Shown: positions 3,054 through 19,020 of the stretch, piece after piece
How positions within the stretch are numbered: the stretch's first letter is position 1
Layout of the letters: every line of letters starts with the position of its first letter
Source of the DNA: a virus
Virus genome (UHGV): UHGV-0126638
Strand: one strand, 5' to 3'
Length of the DNA: 23,813 nucleotides
Translations under genes and position numbers: made by a program
The notes under the pieces: model-generated
Told to the model about the DNA's origin: nothing
What the model saw: only the letters and a program-made list of their open reading frames with translations
The model's database searches: none

Positions 3054-3085
3054 TTCGATTCTGAAATACATCAGAGGCATTGACC

Positions 3086-3595
3086 ATGTTTGATTACCAA
3101 GTTTCCAAACATCCACATTTTGATGAAGCCTGTCGTGCATTCGCATTGCGCCACAACCTAGTGCAACTGGCAGAACGTGCAGGCATGAATGTGCAGATTC
3201 TGCGGAACAAGCTGAACCCAGCTCAACCTCATTTATTAACCGCACCAGAAATCTGGTTGCTTACCGATCTGACTGAAGATTCAACGCTGGTAGATGGCTT
3301 TCTGGCACAGATTCACTGCCTGCCATGTGTACCGATTAATGAGGTGGCAAAAGAGAAACTGCCGCATTACGTCATGAGTGCAACTGCAGAGATAGGGCGT
3401 GTCGCGGCAGGTGCGGTTTCTGGCGATGTAAAAACCAGTGCAGGCCGTCGTGATGCGATCAGCAGCATTAACTCTGTTACACGACTGATGGCGCTGGCTG
3501 CTGTTTCATTGCAGGCCCGTTTACAGGCTAATCCTGCGATGGCGAGTGCAGTTGATACCGTGACTGGCCTCGGTGCTTCATTCGGTTTGCTGTGA
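3086..3595 (+). CDS. Phage 186 CII-like transcriptional activator
   Basis: Translation from ATG 3086 ([45 protein letters not shown]...[28 protein letters not shown]...) closely resembles my recollection of 186 CII (169 aa). AGAGG Shine-Dalgarno 7 nt upstream. Confidence 0.8.
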
Positions 3596-3994: not shown

Positions 3995-4233
3995 CGATCT
4001 ATCAGTGTCTGTATCAGATGAGTGAATTCTTGTTGTTTAACCGAACCTAAAGGAAGTTTGTTTAATTCTTCGCGGAGGAGCTCAAAAAATGCTGATTGAT
4101 TTGCTGAGTCAGTTCGAAATAAGGAGTGGATCAGACCTGAAACAAGAATTCGTTGAACAGCAACCTCATCGCGAAGACTGGAGATCTCGTTTTCAAGTTG
4201 CTCTATACGCTCTCTTTCAACCGGGTTCAACAT
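3985..4233 (-). CDS. Hypothetical helical protein encoded antisense to the early operon (82 aa)
   Basis: ATG at 4233 with AGGA about 10 nt upstream on the minus strand. Translation is heptad-like and helical (ERERIEQLENEISSLRDEVAVQRIL...). Competes with plus-strand ORF 4089..4325. Confidence 0.35.
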   Translation of the reverse strand: MLNPVERERIEQLENEISSLRDEVAVQRILVSGLIHSLFRTDSANQSAFFELLREELNKLPLGSVKQQEFTHLIQTLIDRYR

Positions 4234-4325
4234 TGATGATTCCTTCTAGCTATCAATATGTTGGTAATGGATCATATCAAAAATTTTTTAGTAGATGTGT
4301 TGTGGGATGCATAAATGGCTATTGA
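4089..4325 (+). CDS. Hypothetical protein (78 aa), alternative to the antisense ORF 3985..4233
   Basis: ATG 4089 preceded by GGAGGAG at about 8 nt, same orientation as the operon. Composition is less convincing than the opposite-strand ORF. Confidence 0.3.
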   Translation: MLIDLLSQFEIRSGSDLKQEFVEQQPHREDWRSRFQVALYALFQPGSTLMIPSSYQYVGNGSYQKFFSRCVVGCINGY

Positions 4326-4656
4326 AGGCACTGCGGCGACTGTTCCATTAAGCCCCGGTGAACGCCTGAATGGACTTAATCATATTGCGGAGTTAAGAGC
4401 GAAAGTTTTTGGCCTGAATATTGAGTCAGAGCTTGAGCGGTTTATTAAAGATATGCGTAATCCACGGGATATTAATAGCGAACAAAATAAACGGGCACTG
4501 GCTGCCATATTCTTTATGGCAAAAATTCCAGCTGAACGTCATAGCATCAGCATTAATGAGCTGACCACTGACGAAAAGCGGGAGTTGATTAAAGCAATGA
4601 ATCATTTTCGTGCAGTGGTGAGCTTATTTCCCAGACGGCTAACCATGCCGAATTAA
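4315..4656 (+). CDS. Hypothetical phage early protein (113 aa)
   Basis: ORF in operon orientation; no family recognised; weak Shine-Dalgarno. Confidence 0.45.
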   Translation: MAIEGTAATVPLSPGERLNGLNHIAELRAKVFGLNIESELERFIKDMRNPRDINSEQNKRALAAIFFMAKIPAERHSISINELTTDEKRELIKAMNHFRAVVSLFPRRLTMPN

Positions 4657-4723
4657 CCAACTAATGAAATTAATGGCGTAAACCCGCCGGGCATCCCTTT
4701 ATCTAAATTCAGGAGAATTGATT

Positions 4724-4957
4724 ATGCGTAATATTGAAACCCTCACGACTAAAACCGGACCGGATGATGCAGGGCTTAATATTTTACTGACAGAGGCTCG
4801 TCTGGAAGAACGCCGGGCAAGAGCTGAAGCAATGGCAGCTCGCCTTGATAGCCTTGCGTGCCATATCACATCCCGCCAGCTAAACCACGTTGAAGCGGCT
4901 GAACTGCTGCGTGTGGCAGCTGAAGCAATCCAGAACGAAGCGCAGGAGATCCACTAA
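4724..4957 (+). CDS. Hypothetical phage early protein (77 aa)
   Basis: ATG 4724 with AGGAG 8 nt upstream; its stop overlaps the start of the next gene (TAATG), suggesting translational coupling. Confidence 0.5.
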   Translation: MRNIETLTTKTGPDDAGLNILLTEARLEERRARAEAMAARLDSLACHITSRQLNHVEAAELLRVAAEAIQNEAQEIH

Positions 4958-5184
4958 TGGCTGATGCAATGGATCTCGTACAGCAGCGCGTTGAAGAAGA
5001 ACGCCAGCGCCATATCCGTTCTGCCCGTGCCAAAACGCCGGGCGTGTCCCGCGTGCTTTGCATTGAGTGTGAAGCGCCAATTCCGCCAGCACGCCGCCGT
5101 GCCATTCCGGGTGTGCAGCTTTGCATTACCTGTCAGGAAATCGCAGAGCTGAAAGGCAAACATTACAACGGAGGTGCTGTATGA
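4957..5184 (+). CDS. TraR/DksA-family C4 zinc-finger protein
   Basis: 75 aa with the spacing CIECEAPIP...CITCQ (C-x2-C ... C-x2-C) typical of phage and plasmid TraR-like proteins; AGGAG Shine-Dalgarno; stop overlaps the dam start. Confidence 0.7.
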   Translation: MADAMDLVQQRVEEERQRHIRSARAKTPGVSRVLCIECEAPIPPARRRAIPGVQLCITCQEIAELKGKHYNGGAV

Positions 5185-6038
5185 GCACCATCCTGAAATG
5201 GGCGGGAAATAAAACTGCCATAATGTCAGAACTGAAAAAACATCTTCCTGCTGGCCCGCGACTGGTTGAACCTTTCGCGGGTTCCTGTGCTGTGATGATG
5301 GAGACGGATTATCCCAGTTATCTGGTTGCGGATATTAATCCTGATTTAATCAACCTCTATAAAAAGGTTGCCGCTGATTGTGAATCGTTTATATCTCGCG
5401 CCAGAGTTTTATTTGAGATCGCAAACAGGGAGGTGGCTTATTACAACATAAGGCAGGAGTTTAATTACTCAACTGAAATTACTGATTTCATGAAAGCGGT
5501 ATATTTCCTGTATCTCAATCGTCACGGTTACCGTGGTTTATGTCGCTATAACAAGAGCGGGCATTTCAATATTCCCTACGGTAATTATAAAAATCCGTAT
5601 TTCCCTGAAAAAGAAATTCGCGCATTTGCAGAGAAAGCCAAGCGGGCAACGTTTATCTGCGCGAGCTTTGATGAAACGCTGGCGATGCTGCAGGTGGGGG
5701 ATGTGGTGTATTGCGATCCGCCGTATGACGGTACGTTTTCCGGCTATCACACTGATGGTTTCACTGAAGATGACCAGTATCACCTGGCATCCGTTCTTGA
5801 ACATCGGTCATCAGAAGGACATCCGGTCATTGTTTCTAACAGTGACACATCCCTGATCCGTTCGCTGTATCGCAATTTTACTCACCACTACATCAAGGCA
5901 AAACGCAGCATCGGCGTAGCAGCTGGTGAGAGTAAATCTGCAACAGAAATCATCGCTGTTTCCGGGCCGCGCTGCTGGGTGGGATTTGATCCTTCGCGTG
6001 GAGTGGATAGTTCTGCCGTGTACGGAGTGCGTGCATGA
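5181..6038 (+). CDS. DNA adenine methyltransferase, Dam (GATC) family, phage-encoded
   Basis: Translation from ATG 5181 ([11 protein letters not shown]... FAGS ... DPPY) carries the N6-adenine MTase motifs: AdoMet-binding FxGxG-like region and catalytic DPPY. Start after GGAGG; ATGA overlap with gene A. Confidence 0.8.
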
Positions 6039-8449
6039 GCCATGCTGATATGAACAACTGCAGCGGCTTTAACGAGGTCGCCGCAGCATTCTCATGGAAC
6101 AGCCCGAAAAAGGCCATTAACCCTTATCTGGACCCGGCGGAAGTTGCGCCGGTTTCTGCGCTTTCAAACCTGATCACTCTGTACGCTGTCGATAACGAGC
6201 AGGAACAACTGCGCCGCGAGGCACTGAGTGATCAGGTCTGGGAGCGTTATTTCTTTAATGAATCCCGTGATCCTGTCCAGCGCGAAATGGAGCAGGATAA
6301 ACTTATTAGCCGGGCAAAGCTGGCGCATGAGCAGCAGCGTTTTAATCCAGATATGGTCATTCTGGCGGACGTCAATGCCCAGCCTTCCCATATCAGCAAG
6401 CCGCTGATGCAACGTATTGAATACTTCAGCAGCCTGGGCAGGCCAAAGGCTTATTCCCGCTATTTGCGTGAGACGATTAAGCCATGTCTGGAACGACTGG
6501 AGCATGTACGCGACTGTCAGCTATCCACTTCTTTTCGCTTTATGGCAAGCCATGAAGGGCTGGACGGCCTGCTGATCCTGCCTGAAATGAGTCAGGATCA
6601 GGTGAAGCGCCTGTCTACCCTTGTCGCCGCGCATATGAGCATGTGCCTTGATGCAGCTTGTGGTGATTTGTATGCCACCGATGACATTAAGCCAGAAGAA
6701 ATCCGCAAAACATGGGAAAAGGTGGCAGCGGAAACCCTGCGTCTGGATGTTATCCCGCCTGCGTTTGAGCAACTCCGTCGGAAAAGAAACCGCCGTAAAC
6801 CCGTGCCTTATGAACTCATTCCGGGTTCGCTGGCGCGTATGTTATGCGCCGACTGGTGGTATCGGAAATTATGGAAGATGCGTTGCGAATGGCGGGAAGA
6901 GCAGTTGCGTGCTGTTTGCCTGGTCAGCAAAAAAGCATCTCCCTATGTCAGCTATGAAGCCGTGATGCATAAACGTGAGCAGCGCCGTAAGTCGCTGGAG
7001 TTTTTCCGTTCTCATGAACTGGTGAACGAAGACGGCGACACGCTGGATATGGAAGACGTGGTAAACGCCAGCAGCAGCAACCCTGCACATCGCCGCAATG
7101 AGATGATGGCCTGTGTTAAAGGTCTGGAGCTTATCGCGGAAATGCGCGGTGACAGCGCCGTTTTCTACACCATCACCTGTCCGTCACGTTTCCATTCCAC
7201 GCTAAATAACGGCAGGCCCAACCCGACCTGGACAAATGCGACGGTAAGACAAAGCAGTGATTATCTGGTCGGTATGTTTGCTGCATTTCGTAAGGCGATG
7301 CACAAAGCCGGATTACGCTGGTATGGCGTGCGGGTGGCTGAGCCGCATCATGACGGTACAGTTCACTGGCACCTGTTGTGTTTTATGCGCAAAAAAGATC
7401 GCCGCGCCATTACTGCTTTGTTGCGTAAGTTTGCCATTCGTGAAGACCGCGAGGAGCTGGGTAATAACACGGAACCACGCTTTAAGTCTGAGCTGATAAA
7501 CCCGCGCAAAGGTACGCCAACAAGCTACATCGCGAAATACATCAGTAAGAACATTGACGGGCGTGGTCTGGCTGGCGAGATCAGCAAGGAAACGGGTAAA
7601 TCCCTGCGTGATAACGCTGAATACGTTAATGCCTGGGCGTCTCTGCATCGTGTTCAGCAATTCCGCTTCTTTGGCATTCCGGGGCGTCAGGCTTACCGTG
7701 AACTGCGATTGCTGGCTGGTCAGGCGGCAAGGCAACAGGGGGGCAAAAAAGCAGGTGCGCCGGTACTGGATAACCCGCGCCTTGATGCCATCCTGGCCGC
7801 TGCTGATGCTGGTTGTTTTGCCACCTACATCATGAAGCAGGGCGGCGTACTGGTTCCCCGCAAATATCACCTCATCAGAACCGCTTATGAAATCAACGAA
7901 GAGCCGACCGCCTATGGCGATCACGGTATTCGTATTTATGGCATCTGGTCACCCATTGCAGAGGGCAAGATCTGCACTCATGCGGTGAAGTGGAAAATGG
8001 TTCGTAAGGCCGTTGACATTCAGGAGGCGGCAGCCGACCAGGGCGCTTGCGCCCCTTGGACTCGTGGCAATAACTGTCCCCTTGCTGAAAATTTGAACCA
8101 ACAAGGGAAAGACAAATCAGCTGATGGGGATACCAGAACGGATATCACCCGCATGGATGACAAGGAGTTGCACGATTACCTGCACAGTATGAGCAAAAAA
8201 GAGCGCCGGGAACTGGCAGCAAGGTTACGCCTGGTTAAACCGAAACGGCGTAAAGACTACAAACAGCGAATTACAGATCATCAGCGACAGCAGCTCGTCT
8301 ATGAGCTGAAGTCCAGAGGATTTGATGGTAGCGAGAAAGAGGTCGATTTACTCCTTAGCGGCGGCAGTATTCCGTCAGGAGCAGGCCTGCGTATCTTCTA
8401 TCGGAACCAGCGTTTGCAGGAAGATGATAAGTGGCGGGATCTGTATTAA
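6035..8449 (+). CDS. A: P2 gpA-like replication initiation protein (rolling-circle endonuclease)
   Basis: 804-aa ORF downstream of the early genes; size and position match P2 A. An HxH-type motif (VHWHLL) and a Tyr-containing motif (YIAKYISK) fit a rolling-circle initiator. Confidence 0.8.
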
Positions 8450-8601: not shown

Positions 8602-8790
8602 ATGCAGGACTATTTTTTGGAGTCTTTGAAGCTCCAGCGCATTGATTTTTTTCTTAAGCTTGTAGCGGCTAGTGAGTGTAGTGATGAAGAGAAGGGGCTG
8701 GCTTTGCAGTGGGTTTCTGAACTGACAGATGAACTCATGGCAAAAATCAGAAGCCACGAATACAACCGCTCAATGGATGTCATCAGCTGA
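8602..8790 (+). CDS. Small protein, possible N-terminal part of a Tum-like antirepressor (62 aa)
   Basis: ATG 8602 with AGGAGG 4 nt upstream, directly downstream of the LexA box. Together with the DinI-like ORF it spans 433 nt, about the size of phage 186 tum (~146 aa) as I recall it. Confidence 0.5.
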   Translation: MQDYFLESLKLQRIDFFLKLVAASECSDEEKGLALQWVSELTDELMAKIRSHEYNRSMDVIS

Positions 8791-8800
8791 GGTGACTTTT

Positions 8801-9034
8801 ATGCGCATTGAAATAATGATCGATAAAGAGCAGAAGATTAGCCAGTCTACCCTGGACGCCCTTGAATCCGAGCTTTACCGCAATCTGCGCCCCCTATATC
8901 CCAAAACGGTAATTCGTATCCGTAAAGGTAGCTCTAACGGTGTGGAACTGACCGGACTGCAACTGGATGAAGAAAGAAAACAAGTGATGAAAATTATGCA
9001 GAAGGTGTGGGAAGACGACAGCTGGCTGCATTGA
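8801..9034 (+). CDS. DinI-family protein (Tum C-terminal-like)
   Basis: Translation from ATG 8801 (MRIEIMIDKEQKISQSTLDALESELYRNLRPLYPK...KIMQKVWEDDSWLH) aligns by eye along its whole length with E. coli DinI. GAGGTGA Shine-Dalgarno 5 nt upstream. Confidence 0.75.
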   Translation: MRIEIMIDKEQKISQSTLDALESELYRNLRPLYPKTVIRIRKGSSNGVELTGLQLDEERKQVMKIMQKVWEDDSWLH

Positions 9035-9087
9035 TTTTGTCAATAGATGCTTGTTTTTAATACTTAAAAAGGGTTACATATGAGTGA

Positions 9088-9121
9088 GAGGTGATGTCAA
9101 TCAGATATCACCTCGTTTTTT
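9088..9121 (+). terminator. Rho-independent terminator after the DinI-like gene
   Basis: Inverted repeat GAGGTGAT...ATCACCTC followed by GTTTTTT. It overlaps the 5' extension of ORF 9091..9825, so that extension is unlikely to be coding. Confidence 0.5.
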
Positions 9122-9147
9122 GTCAAGAAAAGAATAATAGGCTAAAA

Positions 9148-9825
9148 ATGAAAATTAACCATATTGCGTTACCTATATCTCTTGCTGTAATCCTAACTGG
9201 TTGCGTGCCTCATGCTTCTAACCGAAATATCACAGCTATTGAAGTGGTGAAGCCTGCTATTGGGCAAAGTGCTACAGCCTACATGGGCGACCCCATCATA
9301 ACATCTGCTACTGGATATAAAACGGACGTACTAGAGCTTGGTGCGGCTAATGGTGCGCTATCTTCTATCTCTGCAGGTACATATTGCAGCGAAGGGAATG
9401 GAATTTACCGCAATCATCATAATTCTCAAGCTGTTGCGCTAAAAAATATCTATGGACAAATCGGCACCTATGTTGATTATGTAAGTTACGATGCTGCAAA
9501 AAATGAGATATCACCACCAAACGGCACTTCTTATACAGCCTCAGAAATTTCTATCAAGCGTGTTCCTGATGGGCTGTGTCGAGTGAGTAACTCATTGGTT
9601 AAGACTATCGAATACAATGGAAATGCAGGCGGTGTAATGAAGTTTACCTATCGTGAGTTTGCAAACGATATGGCTCGTGCAGCGTTTACAACAGATTTTT
9701 CTGTAGATTCGAAGGGAAGTGATGTTATCGCTTACAAAGGAGCCAAGTTCAAAGTGAACAAGGCTGATAACTCGTCTATTTCCTATACAATTATTTCTGG
9801 CTTTGACAAGGCTGTCACGTTCTAG
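9148..9825 (+). CDS. Lipoprotein of unknown function (moron); possible superinfection-exclusion or surface protein
   Basis: Translation from ATG 9148: MKINHIALPISLAVILTGC, a signal peptide with lipobox LTGC. The mature ~205 aa is rich in S, T, G, N and Y (beta-rich appearance). No homolog recalled. Confidence 0.65.
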   Translation: MKINHIALPISLAVILTGCVPHASNRNITAIEVVKPAIGQSATAYMGDPIITSATGYKTDVLELGAANGALSSISAGTYCSEGNGIYRNHHNSQAVALKNIYGQIGTYVDYVSYDAAKNEISPPNGTSYTASEISIKRVPDGLCRVSNSLVKTIEYNGNAGGVMKFTYREFANDMARAAFTTDFSVDSKGSDVIAYKGAKFKVNKADNSSISYTIISGFDKAVTF

Positions 9826-9929
9826 ATTTCACGCTTGCTGAGTATGTTACGATTTTGCACATTCTGCATAAACGCGCATGTCTATGCTGCATGAGATCGC
9901 ATGATCGTTTGAGGATCTTTTGTGTTAAG

Positions 9930-9954
9930 GCCCGCCAGTTCTGGCGGGCTTTTG
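9930..9954 (+). terminator. Rho-independent terminator downstream of the lipoprotein gene
   Basis: Perfect 9-bp stem GCCCGCCAG / CTGGCGGGC around TT, followed by TTTTG. Confidence 0.55.
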
Positions 9955-9998
9955 CGTAGATCATGCAGGTGCATGAAAACCACTACATAAAGCGGGCA

Positions 9999-10017
9999 GG
10001 CGTGGCGGGGATACGAG
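9999..10017. other. cos-like site (candidate cohesive-end sequence) GGCGTGGCGGGGATACGAG
   Basis: The first 13 nt match the 19-nt cohesive ends of phage 186 (GGCGTGGCGGGGAAAGCAT) and 12 of them P2 (GGCGAGGCGGGGAAAGCAC), as I recall them; the last 6 nt diverge. It is followed by CGCGCGC, as at the P2 left end. Confidence 0.4.
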
Positions 10018-10084
10018 CGCGCGCAACGGGTTGTCATTCAAACTCCAATGCTATAAAACTGTGTAATACAAACAACTAAAGTAG

Positions 10085-11839
10085 GTGGCCTCAGTGGAAC
10101 TGCAAGCAAATGCTCGAACCTTAACAAACGTGTTATCTGTAAATAAAAAATATATAGTCCCTAGATTCCAAAGAGAATATTCTTGGGGGAAGGAACAAGT
10201 AAGTGAACTTTGGCATGATATAGTTTCCAATATTCATTACCAGGAGGATGGGCAGTATCAATATGATGAGTATTTCATCGGTGCTCTCGTTTTGGTCGGG
10301 CAGGAAACTAGCTCTGAGCTGATGATTGTAGATGGTCAACAACGTCTTACGACTCTTACTATATTGTTATCAGCATTATGTGATAAATTTAAGTTGATAA
10401 ATGAGTTGGCTGTAGCTCAATCAATATATAATAATTATATATCTGGTATGGATGACGATGGCAGACCTTTTTTTAAATTAGTTAATGAAACTCCTAAGCC
10501 ATACTTTCAAAACAACATTCAGCATATTGATAAGAGAAATGAAGGACCGGAGTCCCTTGAAGAAAGAAACTTGCAATCTTCATATAATGATTTAACTGAG
10601 TATCTTTCAGAAGATAATCTTTGCCAGACATTAGGAGTAGATAGAGAGAAATTTATCTACTTGGAAGCGTTGAAGGCTGTGCGGGATCAAGTTCTACGGT
10701 ATCTGAAAGTGATTTATATTACAGTTAATGATGAAGATGAAGCTTATACAATCTTTGAAACTCTGAATGCTAGGGGATTAAACTTAAGTTATGTAGATCT
10801 TATAAAAAACAAATTATTTAAGAAACTGAATGGCACACATCCTGATGATGATGCAAAAACTAAATGGAATAAAATTAGGCAAATAATTGCTAGTCGTAAT
10901 GGTGTCGGTTCTATCGAGACATTTATCCGTCATTGGTGGGTGTCAAAATATTCTTATGTAAGTAGTGACACTCTTTATAAAGCTTTTCTGGATAAGTGGA
11001 AAAAAGGCGACATTGATGCTTCAGCGTTCATTGATGAGCTACTTTCAGATGCCGAGATATATGTGAAAATATCATCGCCTACAGAACAGGATTTTCCTGA
11101 ACTGGAAATGAAACCAGTTTATCGAGGTTTGCAGGCATTAAGGCTGTTTAACATATCTCAGAATAAACCATTTTTGTTATCTTTATTTAAGGCAAGAGCA
11201 AGAGGAACGCTAAAACTTGTTGATATGAATAATGCAGTGCTGTCAATTGAACGCTTTCATTTTATGTTTAATGCTATTTGTTCATTGCGACCATCAGGTA
11301 TTGAAAGTGCGTATGCTAAAGCTGCTAGGGCTTTAGTGGATGAAGGTTCTACTAAAGCTAGTAATAGACAAGTAATAAAGTCTTTGCTTGAAATGTTGGT
11401 GAAGAGAAAACCAGACATTAATATGTTTGTTGAAAAGTTTGTTATGCTTAAATTTTCAAATCAAGAGTTGAAAAATAAAAGGTTGATTCAGTACATTTTT
11501 AATAGACTTGAGTTACATCACATGAAAACGGGGGAGTATATGCCTGATTCATTAACATTAGAGCATATTCAGCCTCAGAGTGTGGGGGATTCTGAAGTAT
11601 ATAGCATGATAGGAAATTTATTACCACTTTCAAAAGAATTAAATGAAAAAGCTGGAAATAAGTCTGTTGTGGATAAGCTTGAAATTTATAAACAATCACA
11701 ATATGCGCTAGTTAAAATTTTTATTGATGAATTTGAAAATAAATATCAAGGAGAATGGACGCCCGATCATATGAGGTCAAGAGCTGCTGAACTAAGTATT
11801 TTATCGTATAATTCAGTATGGAAATTGGGGCGTGAGTAA
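10085..11839 (+). CDS. DUF262 (ParB-like, DGQQR) plus DUF1524 (His-Me/HNH-like) protein; GmrSD/BrxU/SspE-type candidate modification-dependent nuclease
   Basis: 584-aa ORF (GTG start at 10085; alternative GTG at 10094 after AGGTGG). N-terminal FQREYSW and DGQQR at codons 83-87 (nt 10331-10345) are DUF262 hallmarks; C-terminal LEHIQPQS...GNLLPLSKELNEKAGNKS is DUF1524-like. The gene is markedly AT-rich compared with flanking phage genes. Confidence 0.75.
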   Translation: MASVELQANARTLTNVLSVNKKYIVPRFQREYSWGKEQVSELWHDIVSNIHYQEDGQYQYDEYFIGALVLVGQETSSELMIVDGQQRLTTLTILLSALCDKFKLINELAVAQSIYNNYISGMDDDGRPFFKLVNETPKPYFQNNIQHIDKRNEGPESLEERNLQSSYNDLTEYLSEDNLCQTLGVDREKFIYLEALKAVRDQVLRYLKVIYITVNDEDEAYTIFETLNARGLNLSYVDLIKNKLFKKLNGTHPDDDAKTKWNKIRQIIASRNGVGSIETFIRHWWVSKYSYVSSDTLYKAFLDKWKKGDIDASAFIDELLSDAEIYVKISSPTEQDFPELEMKPVYRGLQALRLFNISQNKPFLLSLFKARARGTLKLVDMNNAVLSIERFHFMFNAICSLRPSGIESAYAKAARALVDEGSTKASNRQVIKSLLEMLVKRKPDINMFVEKFVMLKFSNQELKNKRLIQYIFNRLELHHMKTGEYMPDSLTLEHIQPQSVGDSEVYSMIGNLLPLSKELNEKAGNKSVVDKLEIYKQSQYALVKIFIDEFENKYQGEWTPDHMRSRAAELSILSYNSVWKLGRE

Positions 11840-11866
11840 ATGCCGGGGGGGGGCCCAGCATATTTA

Positions 11867-12916
11867 TCAAAAAGAATCGTTTGTGAAATTTAGGGAGTAG
11901 GCATCAAAGCGTATTGCTTCTTCGCCTAGCCAATAGTTAAGTTCTTGTAGCTGTTTCTGCAGGGGCATCAGTTCGTTGCGGACAAAAACACGACTAGCCT
12001 TCTCCACATCACCAAAGCCCCCAACATTATTAGGCATTATCCCCATCATTTGCGGCGGCACACGATGCGCCGCCATCATGTCGTCCCGGCTCACGTTCTT
12101 GATATTCAGGAACTCATCCTTCGCCGCCACTTCTGACAACGGGATAATCTGAAGCCCATCCTTTTTGCCGTTAGGCGAGTACATAAACAGGTTACGGAAG
12201 TTACCAGGACCTTTGGCACTTTTCATTGCGTTGCGGAGGTTGTTCACATCCTCCTGGTTCTGCGCGGCGTCGGTCATGTACATGATGAAGCCCGCATGGC
12301 TGCCGTTGATGTAATACTTCCGGCGGAACAGCGTGGCGGACTCGTTGAGCAGGGCTGACGGAATGGCAGAAAGATAACCGGGCAGGCCGTAGATCTCCTG
12401 GTTGATGTCCGGCTCCATCAGATGAAAAATGCTGCCTTTCGTGAACTGATACGGCTGGGTTGTCATACCGTATTGCACAAACCAGTAGGTATCCAGGTCT
12501 AACCCGCGTCGGGTGTATTTTGCCAGAGCAGGCTCAAGGGCTATAACTTCACCGAAGCGGTTCGTGCGTTTCTCCAGGTAGGCGTTACCAAAAACCAGAT
12601 AGTCCTGTACAAAACGCGAAAAAGCCTGCTGGCTGAGCAGCGGGTGAGGGATGTAGGTGCTGGTCAGAATGTTGCACTTTACTGCAATCGGGGAACTATG
12701 ATGAACGGCAGCGCGGAAGGTGCGCGCCAGTCCGTCAAAGCTGACGGGCGGCTCATACCAGCGGTCCATCTGTACGCATTCCACATAATCCAGCAGTTCT
12801 CGGCGGTCCAGAACAGGAACGGGATCGCCGAAGCTGAATGCTTCGGCTGTAGTTTGACTTTTAAGCTGGATCTGTTTCGTCGCCGCAGCGCGGTTCTTCT
12901 TACTCTTTCCCATCAA
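11867..12916 (-). CDS. Q: Portal protein, P2 gpQ family
   Basis: 349 aa, leftward, overlapping the start of the terminase gene as in P2. N-terminus MMGKSKKNRAAATK... and size match P2 Q as I recall it. Confidence 0.88.
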   Translation of the reverse strand: MMGKSKKNRAAATKQIQLKSQTTAEAFSFGDPVPVLDRRELLDYVECVQMDRWYEPPVSFDGLARTFRAAVHHSSPIAVKCNILTSTYIPHPLLSQQAFSRFVQDYLVFGNAYLEKRTNRFGEVIALEPALAKYTRRGLDLDTYWFVQYGMTTQPYQFTKGSIFHLMEPDINQEIYGLPGYLSAIPSALLNESATLFRRKYYINGSHAGFIMYMTDAAQNQEDVNNLRNAMKSAKGPGNFRNLFMYSPNGKKDGLQIIPLSEVAAKDEFLNIKNVSRDDMMAAHRVPPQMMGIMPNNVGGFGDVEKASRVFVRNELMPLQKQLQELNYWLGEEAIRFDAYSLNFTNDSF

Positions 12917-17384: not shown

Positions 17385-17479
17385 CAGAACGTGCCCCCGC
17401 GCACGGGCGGCACGGGGTGGCGAAAGGCACAGCCACATCAAAACCCCGTCCACCGCCCTCTATCTCAGGAGAAAGCAGC

Positions 17480-17761
17480 ATGAAGTTTGTTGCGCCAGAA
17501 CAGGCACCGGAACAGGCGGAAATCATCAGAAATACGCCGTTCTGGCCTGATGTGGACCTGTCGGAGTTTCGCAGTGTCATGCGCACTGACGGCACGGTGA
17601 CGCAGCCGCGTTTAAAGCAGGTTGCGCTGTCGGCAATTTCGGAGGTTAACGCAGAGCTGTATGAGTTTCGCAGACGCCAGCAGATGCTGGGGTATGCGTC
17701 GCTGGCTGAGGTTCCGGCGGAACAGCTGGACGGGAAAAGTGAGCGCATTTCCGAAGCCTGA
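17480..17761 (+). pseudogene. L: Head completion protein gpL, C-terminally truncated
   Basis: Start at ATG 17480 with AGGAGAAAG upstream; NTPFWPDVDL...AELYEFR...LAEVPAEQLDG parallels the P2 gpL N-terminal half. The ORF ends at about 93 aa against about 169 aa for P2 gpL as I recall it. Confidence 0.6.
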
Positions 17762-17952
17762 CTGACAGTATTGATACCAGCACCCCAATGGGTCGTTTCT
17801 TTTTTCATGTCATGGGGGCCCTGGCTGAAATGGAACGCGAACTGATAGTTGAACGTACCATGGCAGGGCTGGCTGCAGCTCGTGCCAAAGGCAGAGTAGG
17901 TGGACGCCGTCCTAAGTTGACCACCGAACAGTGGGCACAGATTGGGCGTTTA
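17746..17952 (+). pseudogene. Internal fragment of a Hin/Gin/Pin-type serine DNA invertase gene (about 69 codons)
   Basis: The frame translating HFRSLTDSIDTSTPMGRFFFHVMGALAEMERELIVERTMAGLAAARAKGRVGGRRPKLTTEQWAQIGRL matches the central-to-C-terminal region of Hin-family invertases nearly residue for residue. The catalytic N-terminus and the C-terminal HTH are both absent. Confidence 0.7.
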
Positions 17953-19020
17953 TCCGGTTTACGTGCTGTTGCTGTGATGTTTATGAATCCTCTGGCGGTA
18001 CTGCGCGGTGGACTGGCCGCCGCAGGCACGGTGCTGCGAGTACTGGCATCTGGTCCACTGGCGATGCTGCGCGTTGCCCTGTATGCCATATCTGGTCTGT
18101 TAGGTGCTCTGCTCAGTCCGATAGGTCTTGTGGTTACTGCACTGGCGGGCGTGGCGCTGGTTGTTTGGAAATACTGGCAACCCATCACCGCATTTCTCGG
18201 TGGCGTGGTGGAAGGATTCAAAGCTGCGGCAGGTCCCATCAGTGCAGCGTTCGAACCGCTTAAGCCCGTGTTCCAGTGGATTGGCGACAAAGTGCAGGCG
18301 CTGTGGGGCTGGTTTACTGATCTGCTGACGCCCGTTAAGTCGACCTCTGCCGAACTGCAGAGCGCAGCGGCAATGGGGCGACGATTCGGGGAGGCACTGG
18401 CAGAAGGGCTGAATATGGTCATGCATCCGCTGGACTCCCTGAAATCCGGCGTTTCCTGGTTGCTGGAGAAACTCGGCATTGTCAGTAAAGAGGCTGCAAA
18501 GGCGAAACTGCCGGAAAGCGTGACGCGTCAGCAACCTGCGACGGTGAATGCAGACGGTAAAGTGATGATGCCATCGGGTGATTTTCCGTCATGGGGATAT
18601 GGCTTTGCGGGGATGTATGACAGCGGCGGCTATATCCCGCGCGGGCAGTTTGGCATCGTCGGTGAAAACGGGCCGGAAATTGTTAACGGCCCGGCAAACG
18701 TGACCAGCCGGAGAAATACAGCTGCACTGGCTGCCGTTGTCGCCGGAATGATGGGTGTTGCTGCCGCGCCAGCAGAGCTTCCACCGTTGCATCCTTTGGC
18801 GCTTCCCGCAAAAGGCGGTGAAGCGATGGTGAGTCGTGCAGCTACTGTGCCGCCCATTTACCGGATTGAAGCACCGACGCAGATCATCATCCAGACACAG
18901 CCAGGACAAAGTGCGCAGGATATTGCGCGGGAGGTGGCCCGCCAGCTTGATGAACGTGAACGCAGGCTGAAGGCAAAAGCCAGGAGTAACTACAGCGATC
19001 AGGGGGGATACGACGCATGA
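17953..19020 (+). pseudogene. T: C-terminal portion of the tail tape-measure gene (gpT-like), fused in frame to the invertase fragment
   Basis: Continues the same ORF (17788..19020) into Ala/Gly/Leu-rich sequence typical of tape-measure proteins and ends overlapping the gpU start. The N-terminal part of T and all upstream tail genes are absent. Confidence 0.6.

Follow-up and report, generated by a model that had tools for sequence, protein, structure and literature searches.

HEC-06 (WP_096851903.1, Escherichia coli) is a validated single-gene defense system (Payne et al. 2024, bioRxiv 10.1101/2024.01.29.577857). The Q79A, R80A, E471A and H472A substitutions each abolish its defense, it does not have the RLFDS motif of BrxU, and it is unlike BrxU in structure and phage range (Payne et al., bioRxiv 10.1101/2024.01.29.577857). 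Cloned as a single locus into E. coli K-12 deltaRM, HEC-06 gave defense without any added modification genes. A block of T4 was reported for HEC-06, and a 22%-identical Bacteroides homolog blocks T-even phages and not the unmodified T4-GT7 (bioRxiv 10.1101/2025.02.28.640651). DndI is not modification-dependent and is restrained by host phosphorothioate (PMC11662687). The cos-proximal gpA–gpQ region of P2 is a defense hotspot that hosts many systems, and its published table includes WP_000422658 as "DUF262/DUF1524" (Rousset et al. 2022, PMC9122126). The available portions of the text and supplements of that study give no sign that WP_000422658 was itself cloned and assayed.

The nuclease gene analyzed here lies in a 23,813-nucleotide stretch of DNA (the window), whose genes are prophage and chromosomal flanking genes only, with no dnd or ssp gene among them. 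Its product is 100% identical to RefSeq WP_000422658.1. Databases and the published hotspot table already contain the family, the locus and the exact protein. The family had been called known in the original prediction, and this is correct. The remaining point of interest is the substrate specificity of the subfamily to which the protein belongs.

The cos-to-Q slot and its cargo

The gene order is A (6035–8449), cos, the nuclease gene and Q. The 19-nt cohesive-end (cos) equivalent is GGCGTGGCGGGGATACGAG at 9999–10017, compared with GGCGAGGCGGGGAAAGCAC for the annotated P2 cosL. Conservation around cos extends from ~9876 to 10027, and from 10028 onward the DNA is variable cargo. On its right the cargo slot is bounded by the portal gene Q (11867–12916, minus strand), and a 27-bp spacer with a G9 run (11840–11866) separates the convergent nuclease and Q stops. 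A search of this spacer for a terminator turned up no convincing one; the plus-strand fold does not outperform shuffled sequences (z = -0.6), and the minus-strand fold has a marginal score (z = -2.2) and no T-run. The GC content of the nuclease gene is 0.342 (GC3 0.274) compared to 0.522 for Q, 0.571 for P (GC3 0.716) and 0.527 for A, and this low value fits horizontally acquired cargo. A cos-like site beside the gene, a 27-bp distance to the Q stop and a composition far more AT-rich than the flanking P2 genes were all features of the original prediction, and all three are borne out.

The open reading frame is intact on the plus strand and spans 10085–11839 in its maximal reading, 584 aa from a GTG. 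The original prediction adopted this length; the frame stands and the length does not. Translation most likely starts at a second in-frame GTG, at 10094, which lies 5 nt downstream of a Shine-Dalgarno sequence (AGGTGG, 10083–10088) and yields a 581-aa protein encoded, with its stop, by 10094–11839. The GTG at 10085 was dropped in favor of 10094 on the basis of the homolog N termini, which all begin MEL..., and the PGAP call in E. coli MB51, which uses the same GTG.

A strong, conserved hairpin followed by UUUU is located upstream of cos on the plus strand (9927–9955; -21.8 kcal/mol, z = -4.2). It is probably the terminator of the early operon, and the nuclease gene would consequently need its own promoter. 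Ahead of the gene is a cargo-specific 66-bp plus-strand 5' leader (10028–10093) containing promoter-like hexamers and the Shine-Dalgarno sequence. The hexamers, TTGTCA (10031–10036) and TATAAA (10052–10057), are those of the weak sigma-70 promoter proposed at the outset. They exist, but their 15-nt spacer does not make a good sigma-70 site, and a consensus scan of the leader did not report the pair or find any other convincing sigma-70 promoter. For this reason, expression of the nuclease in the lysogen is putative.

In this P2/186-like prophage, the cos-to-Q slot carries the nuclease gene as a single-gene cargo (moron). The same slot is occupied by AbiU in Fels-2 and by a ThsB-like TIR gene in E. 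coli MLI023K1, and it is nearly empty in P2, where the Q side of cos holds only 167 bp. The presence of unrelated defense genes in the slots of sister phages, together with the near-empty P2 slot, places the nuclease gene outside the core functions of the phage. The comparison across P2-like prophages proposed in the original prediction thus returned variable slot content rather than a conserved core gene. The cos-proximal accessory position that it assigned is the gpA–gpQ hotspot, the locus for which WP_000422658 itself is tabled (PMC9122126). Relative to cos, the nuclease gene is on the Q side. The further equation with the tin/old slot fails on this point, as old and tin of P2 are located across cos, on the A side, at the opposite end of the genome. 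A Dam-type methylase gene of the prophage (5121–6038) was considered as a partner and rejected; sister prophages with other cargo have the same methylase gene.

The prophage is defective, as had been supposed when it was described as having lost its own lytic ability: it has a truncated gpL and retains neither the lysis genes nor most of the tail genes. The E. coli MB51 prophage carries the same gene and retains head-completion, lysis and the first tail genes in the region shown, so the defective state of the present prophage is incidental. Since the nuclease gene is intact in a prophage that has lost lysis and tail genes, such cargo can outlive the phage. The locus illustrates the published rule by which P2-like prophages use their cos-proximal region as a swap-in slot for defense genes.

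Domains, predicted fold and relatives

Pfam models match both ends of the protein. GmrSD_N/DUF262 (PF03235) scores 133.9 bits against a gathering cut-off of 33.2 (E = 1e-38) and covers residues 15–245 of the 584-aa frame (10127–10819), a ParB-like NTPase domain that aligns with the N-terminal domain of DndI. GmrSD_C/DUF1524 (PF07510) scores 45.2 bits, also above its cut-off (23; E = 1.2e-11), and covers residues 457–570 of the same frame (11453–11794). The region between them, approximately residues 246–480 (10829–11533), is an all-helical linker in the AlphaFold2 model, with local pLDDT mostly 85–95 and an overall pLDDT of 81. The motifs begin, in 581-aa numbering, at residues 25 (FQREYSW), 80 (DGQQR), 489 (LEHIQPQS), 507 (GN) and 517 (NEKAGNK). 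The NTP-hydrolysis motif DGQQR (D80–R84, 10331–10345) is invariant in 55 aligned homologs, as are E490, H491, G507, N508 and N517. Conservation and predicted secondary structure place the beta-beta-alpha core of a His-Me finger at 11555–11653; the model has a strand at 488–491 bearing E490-H491, G507-N508, a strand at 509–512 and a helix at 514–520 bearing N517. Pfam and the model reveal no further sensor domain besides DUF262, the linker and DUF1524, and NCBIfam has no model for the nuclease.

A Foldseek search of the PDB with the AlphaFold2 model returned only DndI, BrxU and SspE at E <= 0.001. The nuclease is a member of the GmrSD family by its domains, DGQQR motif, (D/E)-H dyad with Asn residues, and fold. 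The HMM search and structure prediction suggested in the original prediction therefore agree with its description of DUF262 hallmarks, a DUF1524-like C terminus and a layout like that of GmrSD, BrxU and SspE.

The best defense-family match is the PADLOC HEC-06 model PDLC04154 (3.8e-90, 301 bits), in which residues 1–581 align with profile positions 1–566 of 569. The tested HEC-06 scores 733 bits on this profile, which makes the nuclease an outlying HEC-06 member. An end-to-end alignment with the tested HEC-06 (L003) gives 26% identity (E = 2e-35), and both proteins have DGQQR and TLEH. The four HEC-06 residues required for defense, Q79, R80, E471 and H472, align with Q83, R84, E490 and H491, and all four are conserved.

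The nuclease belongs to a separate subfamily from the tested HEC-06, PHROG 21165 (4.1e-105). This subfamily is large and tightly conserved, with 2613 matches and 52–56% identity even to cyanobacterial proteins. Its 'MEL...' members are 575–582 aa long and share >50% identity between Enterobacteria and Cyanobacteria. The description of the protein as a divergent member does not hold, in the sense of an isolated one, for a sequence with a 100% identical RefSeq entry and such a subfamily, yet identity to the tested HEC-06 is only the 26% given above.

The gene was found in 6 of 5426 genomes, 1277 of which match some part of window positions 9000–12000. The ORF is intact with DNA identity of at least 99.9% in six complete E. 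coli genomes. A Klebsiella ortholog, 86% identical, resides in lambdoid prophages. A megablast search of 50,697 phage records with the gene returned no match, and tblastn against phage records returned only distant homologs of 22–27% identity in Listeria and Streptococcus phages. The genetic contexts are solitary in P2-like A–Q hotspots (E. coli and Serratia), lambdoid prophages (Klebsiella) and cyanobacterial chromosomes, and no neighbor is conserved across these loci. No dnd or ssp genes lie beside the homologs at nine loci representing five homologous proteins. The solitary contexts and the validated family agree with the earlier proposal of a stand-alone defense gene, whose activity is predicted from the protein sequence.

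Proposed mode of action and alternative readings

The protein, encoded by a prophage moron, is probably a HEC-06-type restriction nuclease of the GmrSD family that works alone and cuts hypermodified phage DNA. The ParB-like DUF262 domain would bind and hydrolyze NTP via DGQQR, and this step would control the C-terminal His-Me-finger nuclease (E490-H491...N508...N517) through the long helical linker, presumably in a dimer. The nuclease would then nick or cut incoming phage DNA bearing a modification that the host lacks; the likeliest candidate is the cytosine modification of T-even phages, hydroxymethyl- or glucosyl-hydroxymethyl-cytosine. A lysogen would be protected without any cognate methylase, and carrier strains may resist T-even-like therapeutic phages. 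Some observations run counter to this reading. The distance from the tested HEC-06 is large by both identity and profile score (26%; 301 versus 733 bits), modification dependence is known only from a different, distant homolog, and DndI, the closest solved structure, does not depend on modification.

The similarity to DndI (9JFL), ahead of BrxU and SspE among solved structures, raises the question of a DndI- or SspE-like nuclease guided by phosphorothioate and dependent on host dnd or ssp genes encoded elsewhere, which would either attack phosphorothioate-free DNA or be switched on by host phosphorothioate. A search with the nuclease sequence by itself matches DndI at E = 1.4e-12, the family profile aligns with it over its full length at E = 4.6e-23, and DndI is the top Foldseek match (E = 5e-12). 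The PADLOC 'Orf5' model PDLC02687 matches the nuclease at 3.8e-77, and 'Orf5' was equated with the DndI family by rebuilding the DndI sequence from the profile alignment and scanning it against PADLOC (PDLC02701). On PDLC02701, the model of DndI proper, the nuclease scores 115 bits compared to 921 bits for DndI and to its own 301 bits on HEC-06. The phosphorothioate-sensing Tyr of DndI (Y25) and SspE (Y30) aligns with F25 (codon 10166–10168), which is Phe in all 55 aligned subfamily members and in the tested HEC-06. The lack of dnd and ssp genes in the window and at the nine homolog loci, and the defense of K-12 deltaRM by HEC-06 with no modification genes supplied, also argue against phosphorothioate guidance. 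Carriage by prophages of two unrelated families is a poor fit to dependence on host modification, and phosphorothioate guidance is very unlikely overall.

A GmrSD-like defense nuclease could also be triggered by an infection cue other than modification, perhaps to act by abortive infection; a protein of the phage, an intermediate of replication and a DNA end are examples of such cues. The family is mechanistically plastic, with three different logics in GmrSD/BrxU, SspE and DndI. Payne et al. stress the differences in structure and phage range between HEC-06 and BrxU, and the neighboring cargoes of the hotspot, AbiU and TIR, are of the Abi type. The sole specificity data for the HEC-06 clade point instead to modified T-even DNA, and no sensor domain exists beyond DUF262, the linker and DUF1524, which leaves a different cue unlikely. 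The least probable reading is a gene with no defense role, either a silent or decaying passenger or the phage's own nuclease for packaging or for competition with P4-type satellites. A clear promoter was not found in the leader, the gene directly adjoins cos and the prophage is decaying, all as this reading would have it. It accounts poorly for an ORF that is intact and at least 99.9% identical in six complete genomes, for full conservation of the catalytic residues, and for a slot that varies among sister phages, is near-empty in P2 and holds this gene in only 6 of 5426 genomes.

Within a defense role for the nuclease, 26% identity to the tested HEC-06 alongside >50% identity between Enterobacteria and Cyanobacteria means that the 'MEL...' subfamily could be a functionally distinct GmrSD-like clade with another trigger or target, a tentative and rather unlikely possibility. 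Such a clade might recognize not glucosyl-hmC but a different DNA modification, for instance deazaguanine or hypermodified thymidine, which could bear on cyanophages, or a cue of another kind altogether. The T4 internal-protein inhibitors Ip1-3 might have no effect on it, and the position directly after cosL might give privileged expression.

Comparison with known defense nucleases

DndI of Salmonella Cerro 87 (9JFL; PMC11662687) has DGQQR and the His-Me finger in common with the nuclease. DndI is co-transcribed with dndFGH beside dndBCDE and senses phosphorothioate through Y25, whereas the nuclease has no dnd neighborhood and has Phe25. The nuclease lacks three features of DndI/'Orf5' members, namely dnd linkage, Y25 and a strong PDLC02701 score. 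SspE (6JIV/7DRS/7DRI) likewise pairs a DUF262 N terminus with a DUF1524-type C terminus, and its C-terminal fold matches at E = 5e-5. SspE differs in being ~770 aa long, sspABCD-linked and activated by phosphorothioate via Tyr. Sequence similarity to SspE is limited to residues 20–101, and the PADLOC SspE profile models match the N-terminal ~110 residues of the nuclease and no more. The length, linkage and full-length profile match of an SspE are all lacking.

GmrSD and BrxU (Eco94GmrSD; BrxU 7P9K/7P9M) contain the same Pfam pair in a single polypeptide that has no cognate methylase, and they presumably share their modified-DNA logic with the nuclease. The BrxU fold matches at E = 2e-5, but the sequence is very remote, with no PDB sequence match to BrxU at E <= 0.01, and PADLOC mREase_IV matches the N-terminal domain only (5.6e-16). 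HEC-06 shares the single-gene DUF262-linker-DUF1524 organization and a length of ~560–580 aa, and it is also prophage-borne, in a Rac-like lambdoid prophage. The differences are the 26% identity, a His in the nuclease at the position of HEC-06 S46, and the placement of the nuclease in PHROG 21165, where a defense role is assigned by homology to HEC-06.

The nuclease gene and its predicted fold

At its maximal extent the open reading frame (10085–11839, + strand, GTG start) has the 584 codons given in the original prediction, and a second in-frame GTG lies at 10094. Because AGGTGG (10083–10088) precedes this second codon with a 5-nt spacer, every homologue has the N-terminus MEL... at its position, and the PGAP annotation in E. 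coli MB51 is the 581-residue form, the gene is taken to be 10094–11839 with 10094 as the predicted start; the frame stands and the start is corrected. Pfam searches matched both expected domains, DUF262 (GmrSD_N/PF03235, 1e-38) and DUF1524 (GmrSD_C/PF07510, 1.2e-11), far over their gathering scores. All of the motifs quoted earlier were located in the 581-residue protein: FQREYSW at residue 25, DGQQR at 80, LEHIQPQS at 489, GN at 507, and NEKAGNK at 517. The gene is AT-rich as described, with a GC content of 34.2% (GC3 27%) versus 52% for Q, 57% for P (GC3 72%), and 53% for A, and its stop codon is separated from that of Q by the 27 bp originally reported. A run of nine G at 11845–11853 within this spacer between convergent stops could be a slippage-prone tract or an assembly-sensitive site; a convincing terminator was not found in the spacer at the G run.

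An AlphaFold2 model built on a 55-sequence alignment (mean pLDDT 81) shows a mixed alpha/beta domain at the N-terminus, then a long middle region made up entirely of helices, and, at residues 488–520, a beta-beta-alpha element bearing E490-H491, N508, and N517. Foldseek comparison with the PDB (E <= 0.001) returned only GmrSD-like proteins, namely DndI (9JFL, 5e-12), BrxU (7P9M, 2e-5), and the SspE C-terminal domain (7DRI, 5e-5), which bears out the BrxU/SspE two-domain layout. DndI is also the closest solved relative by sequence (1.4e-12 alone; 4.6e-23 over the full length with a family profile). These analyses establish the architecture, fold, and catalytic residues of the protein.

A cargo slot between cos and the portal gene

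Pfam matches across the window indicate a P2/186-like prophage: integrase (691–1821), CI repressor (2137–2712), CII (3080–3595), a Dam-type methylase (5121–6038), gpA (6035–8449), a DinI-like gene (8729–9034), and portal Q (11867–12916), with terminase P, scaffold O, capsid N, and small terminase M beyond it. A TetR-family gene borders the prophage at one end, and an Asp-Al_Ex permease gene and ybjM border it at the other, a setting that resembles the K-12 ybjK(rcdA)-ybjL-ybjM region. Cos, the terminase, portal, scaffold, and capsid genes, gpU, and gpD are kept. gpL ends at ~17747, matching only profile positions 1–75 of 139, and is followed by a ~200-bp recombinase/invertase fragment (17747–17950), the 3' part alone of the tape-measure gene (17950–19020), and then gpU and gpD. 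The prophage has thus lost its lysis genes and most of its tail genes and is defective, in line with the predicted loss of lytic ability. The internal deletion scar covers 17417–19020. E. coli MB51 carries the same gene in a P2-like prophage whose examined region still has head-completion, holin, lysozyme, spanin, and first tail genes, so the defective state of the prophage in the window is incidental.

The sequence GGCGTGGCGGGGATACGAG at 9999–10017 is the counterpart of the annotated 19-nt P2 cosL, GGCGAGGCGGGGAAAGCAC. The surrounding 9830–10027 is 98% identical to Fels-2 and many Klebsiella P2-like phages, and in a four-way alignment identity stops exactly after ...GAGCGCGCGCAA at 10027, ~10 bp past the cohesive end. 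Beyond this point the window and MB51 have the DUF262-DUF1524 gene, Fels-2 a 565-aa AIPR protein (PADLOC AbiU, 2.7e-112), E. coli MLI023K1 a hypothetical gene and a ThsB-like TIR gene, and P2 only 167 bp from cosL to the Q stop. Since each phage differs past 10027, comparison of these P2-like prophages points to a genuine cargo site that is sharply bounded on its left. The predicted cos-proximal accessory position holds for the cos-like site and the hotspot, and fails for its likeness to tin and old, which in P2 map to the opposite end of the genome, beyond cos. Rousset et al. 2022 (PMC9122126) described the gpA-gpQ hotspot to which the slot belongs. On the left, the variable cargo starts at one fixed nucleotide (10027/10028), 10 bp past the 19-nt cohesive end; its right-hand limit seems to fall within the 3' end of Q, a stretch that diverges between phages and has a GC fraction of 0.48 versus 0.53 in the remainder of Q.

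Upstream of cos, 9927–9955 can fold into a strong, conserved hairpin that has a U-run (-21.8 kcal/mol, z = -4.2), so the nuclease gene probably needs its own promoter in the 66-bp leader (10028–10093). The proposed sigma70 hexamers are present there, but their spacer is 15 nt and a consensus promoter scan of the leader did not report them.

A second hotspot cargo gene is located at 9091–9825 (+), between the DinI-like gene and cos, with a probable ATG start at 9148. Its ~225-aa product has an N-terminus, MKINHIALPISLAVILTGC, judged lipoprotein-like by eye, and could be a superinfection-exclusion lipoprotein. It has no match in Pfam or PADLOC, matches PHROG 1353 (4.5e-102, function unknown), and also occurs in Fels-2 (STM2726) and MLI023K1. 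None of 5426 complete E. coli genomes has the window's left and right cargo together. The two halves of 9000–12000 match different strain sets, and the matched stretches overlap only over the cos region (9876–10035), which suggests recombination at or near cos.

Family and distribution

The protein is identical to WP_000422658.1 over all 581 residues. The gene occurs in 6 of the 5426 genomes (>=99.9% DNA identity), and all six match 9876–12000, a stretch that starts shortly ahead of cos, spans the gene, and reaches into the portal gene, so the locus is the same in each; some part of the queried 9000–12000 matched in 1277 genomes. Rousset et al. list WP_000422658 as 'DUF262/DUF1524' beside the DinI-like gene in their supplementary hotspot table (PMC9122126). 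The exact protein at its exact locus was therefore already catalogued and, with family and hotspot also described, novelty is confined to the specificity of the subfamily.

The protein matches PHROG 21165 (4.1e-105), and its top PADLOC match is HEC-06 (PDLC04154, 3.8e-90, 301 bits, full length); it is nearer HEC-06 but forms a subfamily apart (PHROG 21165). This subfamily is large, with 2613 matches at E <= 1e-5 among 8000 candidates scored, the best 120 of which are all at least 51% identical. The protein is thus not the lone divergent member first supposed. In Klebsiella, an 86%-identical orthologue is carried by lambdoid prophages, with the replication genes on one side of it and the nin region on the other. 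The tested HEC-06 gene of E. coli S3 is likewise in a lambdoid prophage, flanked by the replication genes and the nin/Q region. Temperate phages of two unrelated families thus carry the same defence module. The P2-like A-Q slot also holds a 75%-identical orthologue in Serratia and a 55%-identical paralogue in E. coli. Immediately upstream of the paralogue (4006–5583 of that locus) is a 525-aa HEPN_LA2681 protein, which may be a further hotspot defence candidate. The homologues include many from cyanobacteria (Nostoc, Anabaena, Stanieria, Leptolyngbya, and others) that are 52–56% identical to the window protein over the full length. Those whose loci were examined are solitary chromosomal genes, one beside a Fic/MazE pair. 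Such conservation across phyla is unusually tight for a defence gene, and the P2-like, lambdoid, and cyanobacterial contexts point to a recurrent, self-sufficient, horizontally mobile module.

Predicted mechanism and relation to HEC-06 and DndI

HEC-06 is a GmrSD-like defence that is encoded by a single gene and has been validated by experiment; its protection is abolished by Q79A, R80A, E471A, or H472A (bioRxiv 10.1101/2024.01.29.577857), and a later study reports that it blocks T4 (bioRxiv 10.1101/2025.02.28.640651). The tested gene was recovered from an E. coli genome via the partial sequence in the source paper's supplement. Its product aligns end to end with the window protein (26% identity, E = 2e-35), in which all four essential residues are kept as Q83, R84, E490, and H491. 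We infer the defence activity, substrate, and oligomeric state from HEC-06, BrxU, GmrSD, and DndI. The DUF262 domain would hydrolyse NTP through DGQQR, and hydrolysis would gate, via the helical linker, DNA binding and cleavage by the C-terminal His-Me finger. As no cognate modification enzyme is present, host DNA would escape cleavage through the lack of a base modification that the enzyme would require. This would be the logic of a type IV enzyme, most likely aimed at T-even DNA with hmC or glucosyl-hmC. The original observation is confirmed and its interpretation supported; minor corrections concern where translation starts, on which side of cos the gene lies, how weak the promoter is, and the supposed isolation of the protein.

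DndI is a phosphorothioate-guarded nuclease: it cleaves DNA that lacks the modification, and sensing of phosphorothioate by Y25 releases it from self DNA (PMC11662687). The window protein also matches the PADLOC 'Orf5' models (PDLC02686–02702), whose description is uninformative; these represent the DndI family, as DndI itself reaches 921 bits on PDLC02701. On the HEC-06 model and PDLC02687, respectively, the tested HEC-06 scores 733 and 582 bits and the window protein 301 and 258 bits; the window protein has only 115 bits on the DndI-proper model. By these scores HEC-06 and Orf5/DndI form one continuum, and the models overlap so heavily that automated labels can flip between 'Orf5' and 'HEC-06'. 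A phosphorothioate-dependent mechanism for the window protein is very improbable. No dnd or ssp genes lie beside the gene in the window or at the homologue loci examined, and HEC-06 was active in E. coli K-12 deltaRM when cloned as one locus. The tyrosine with which DndI senses phosphorothioate, Y25, is instead an invariant Phe in both the subfamily of the window protein and HEC-06.
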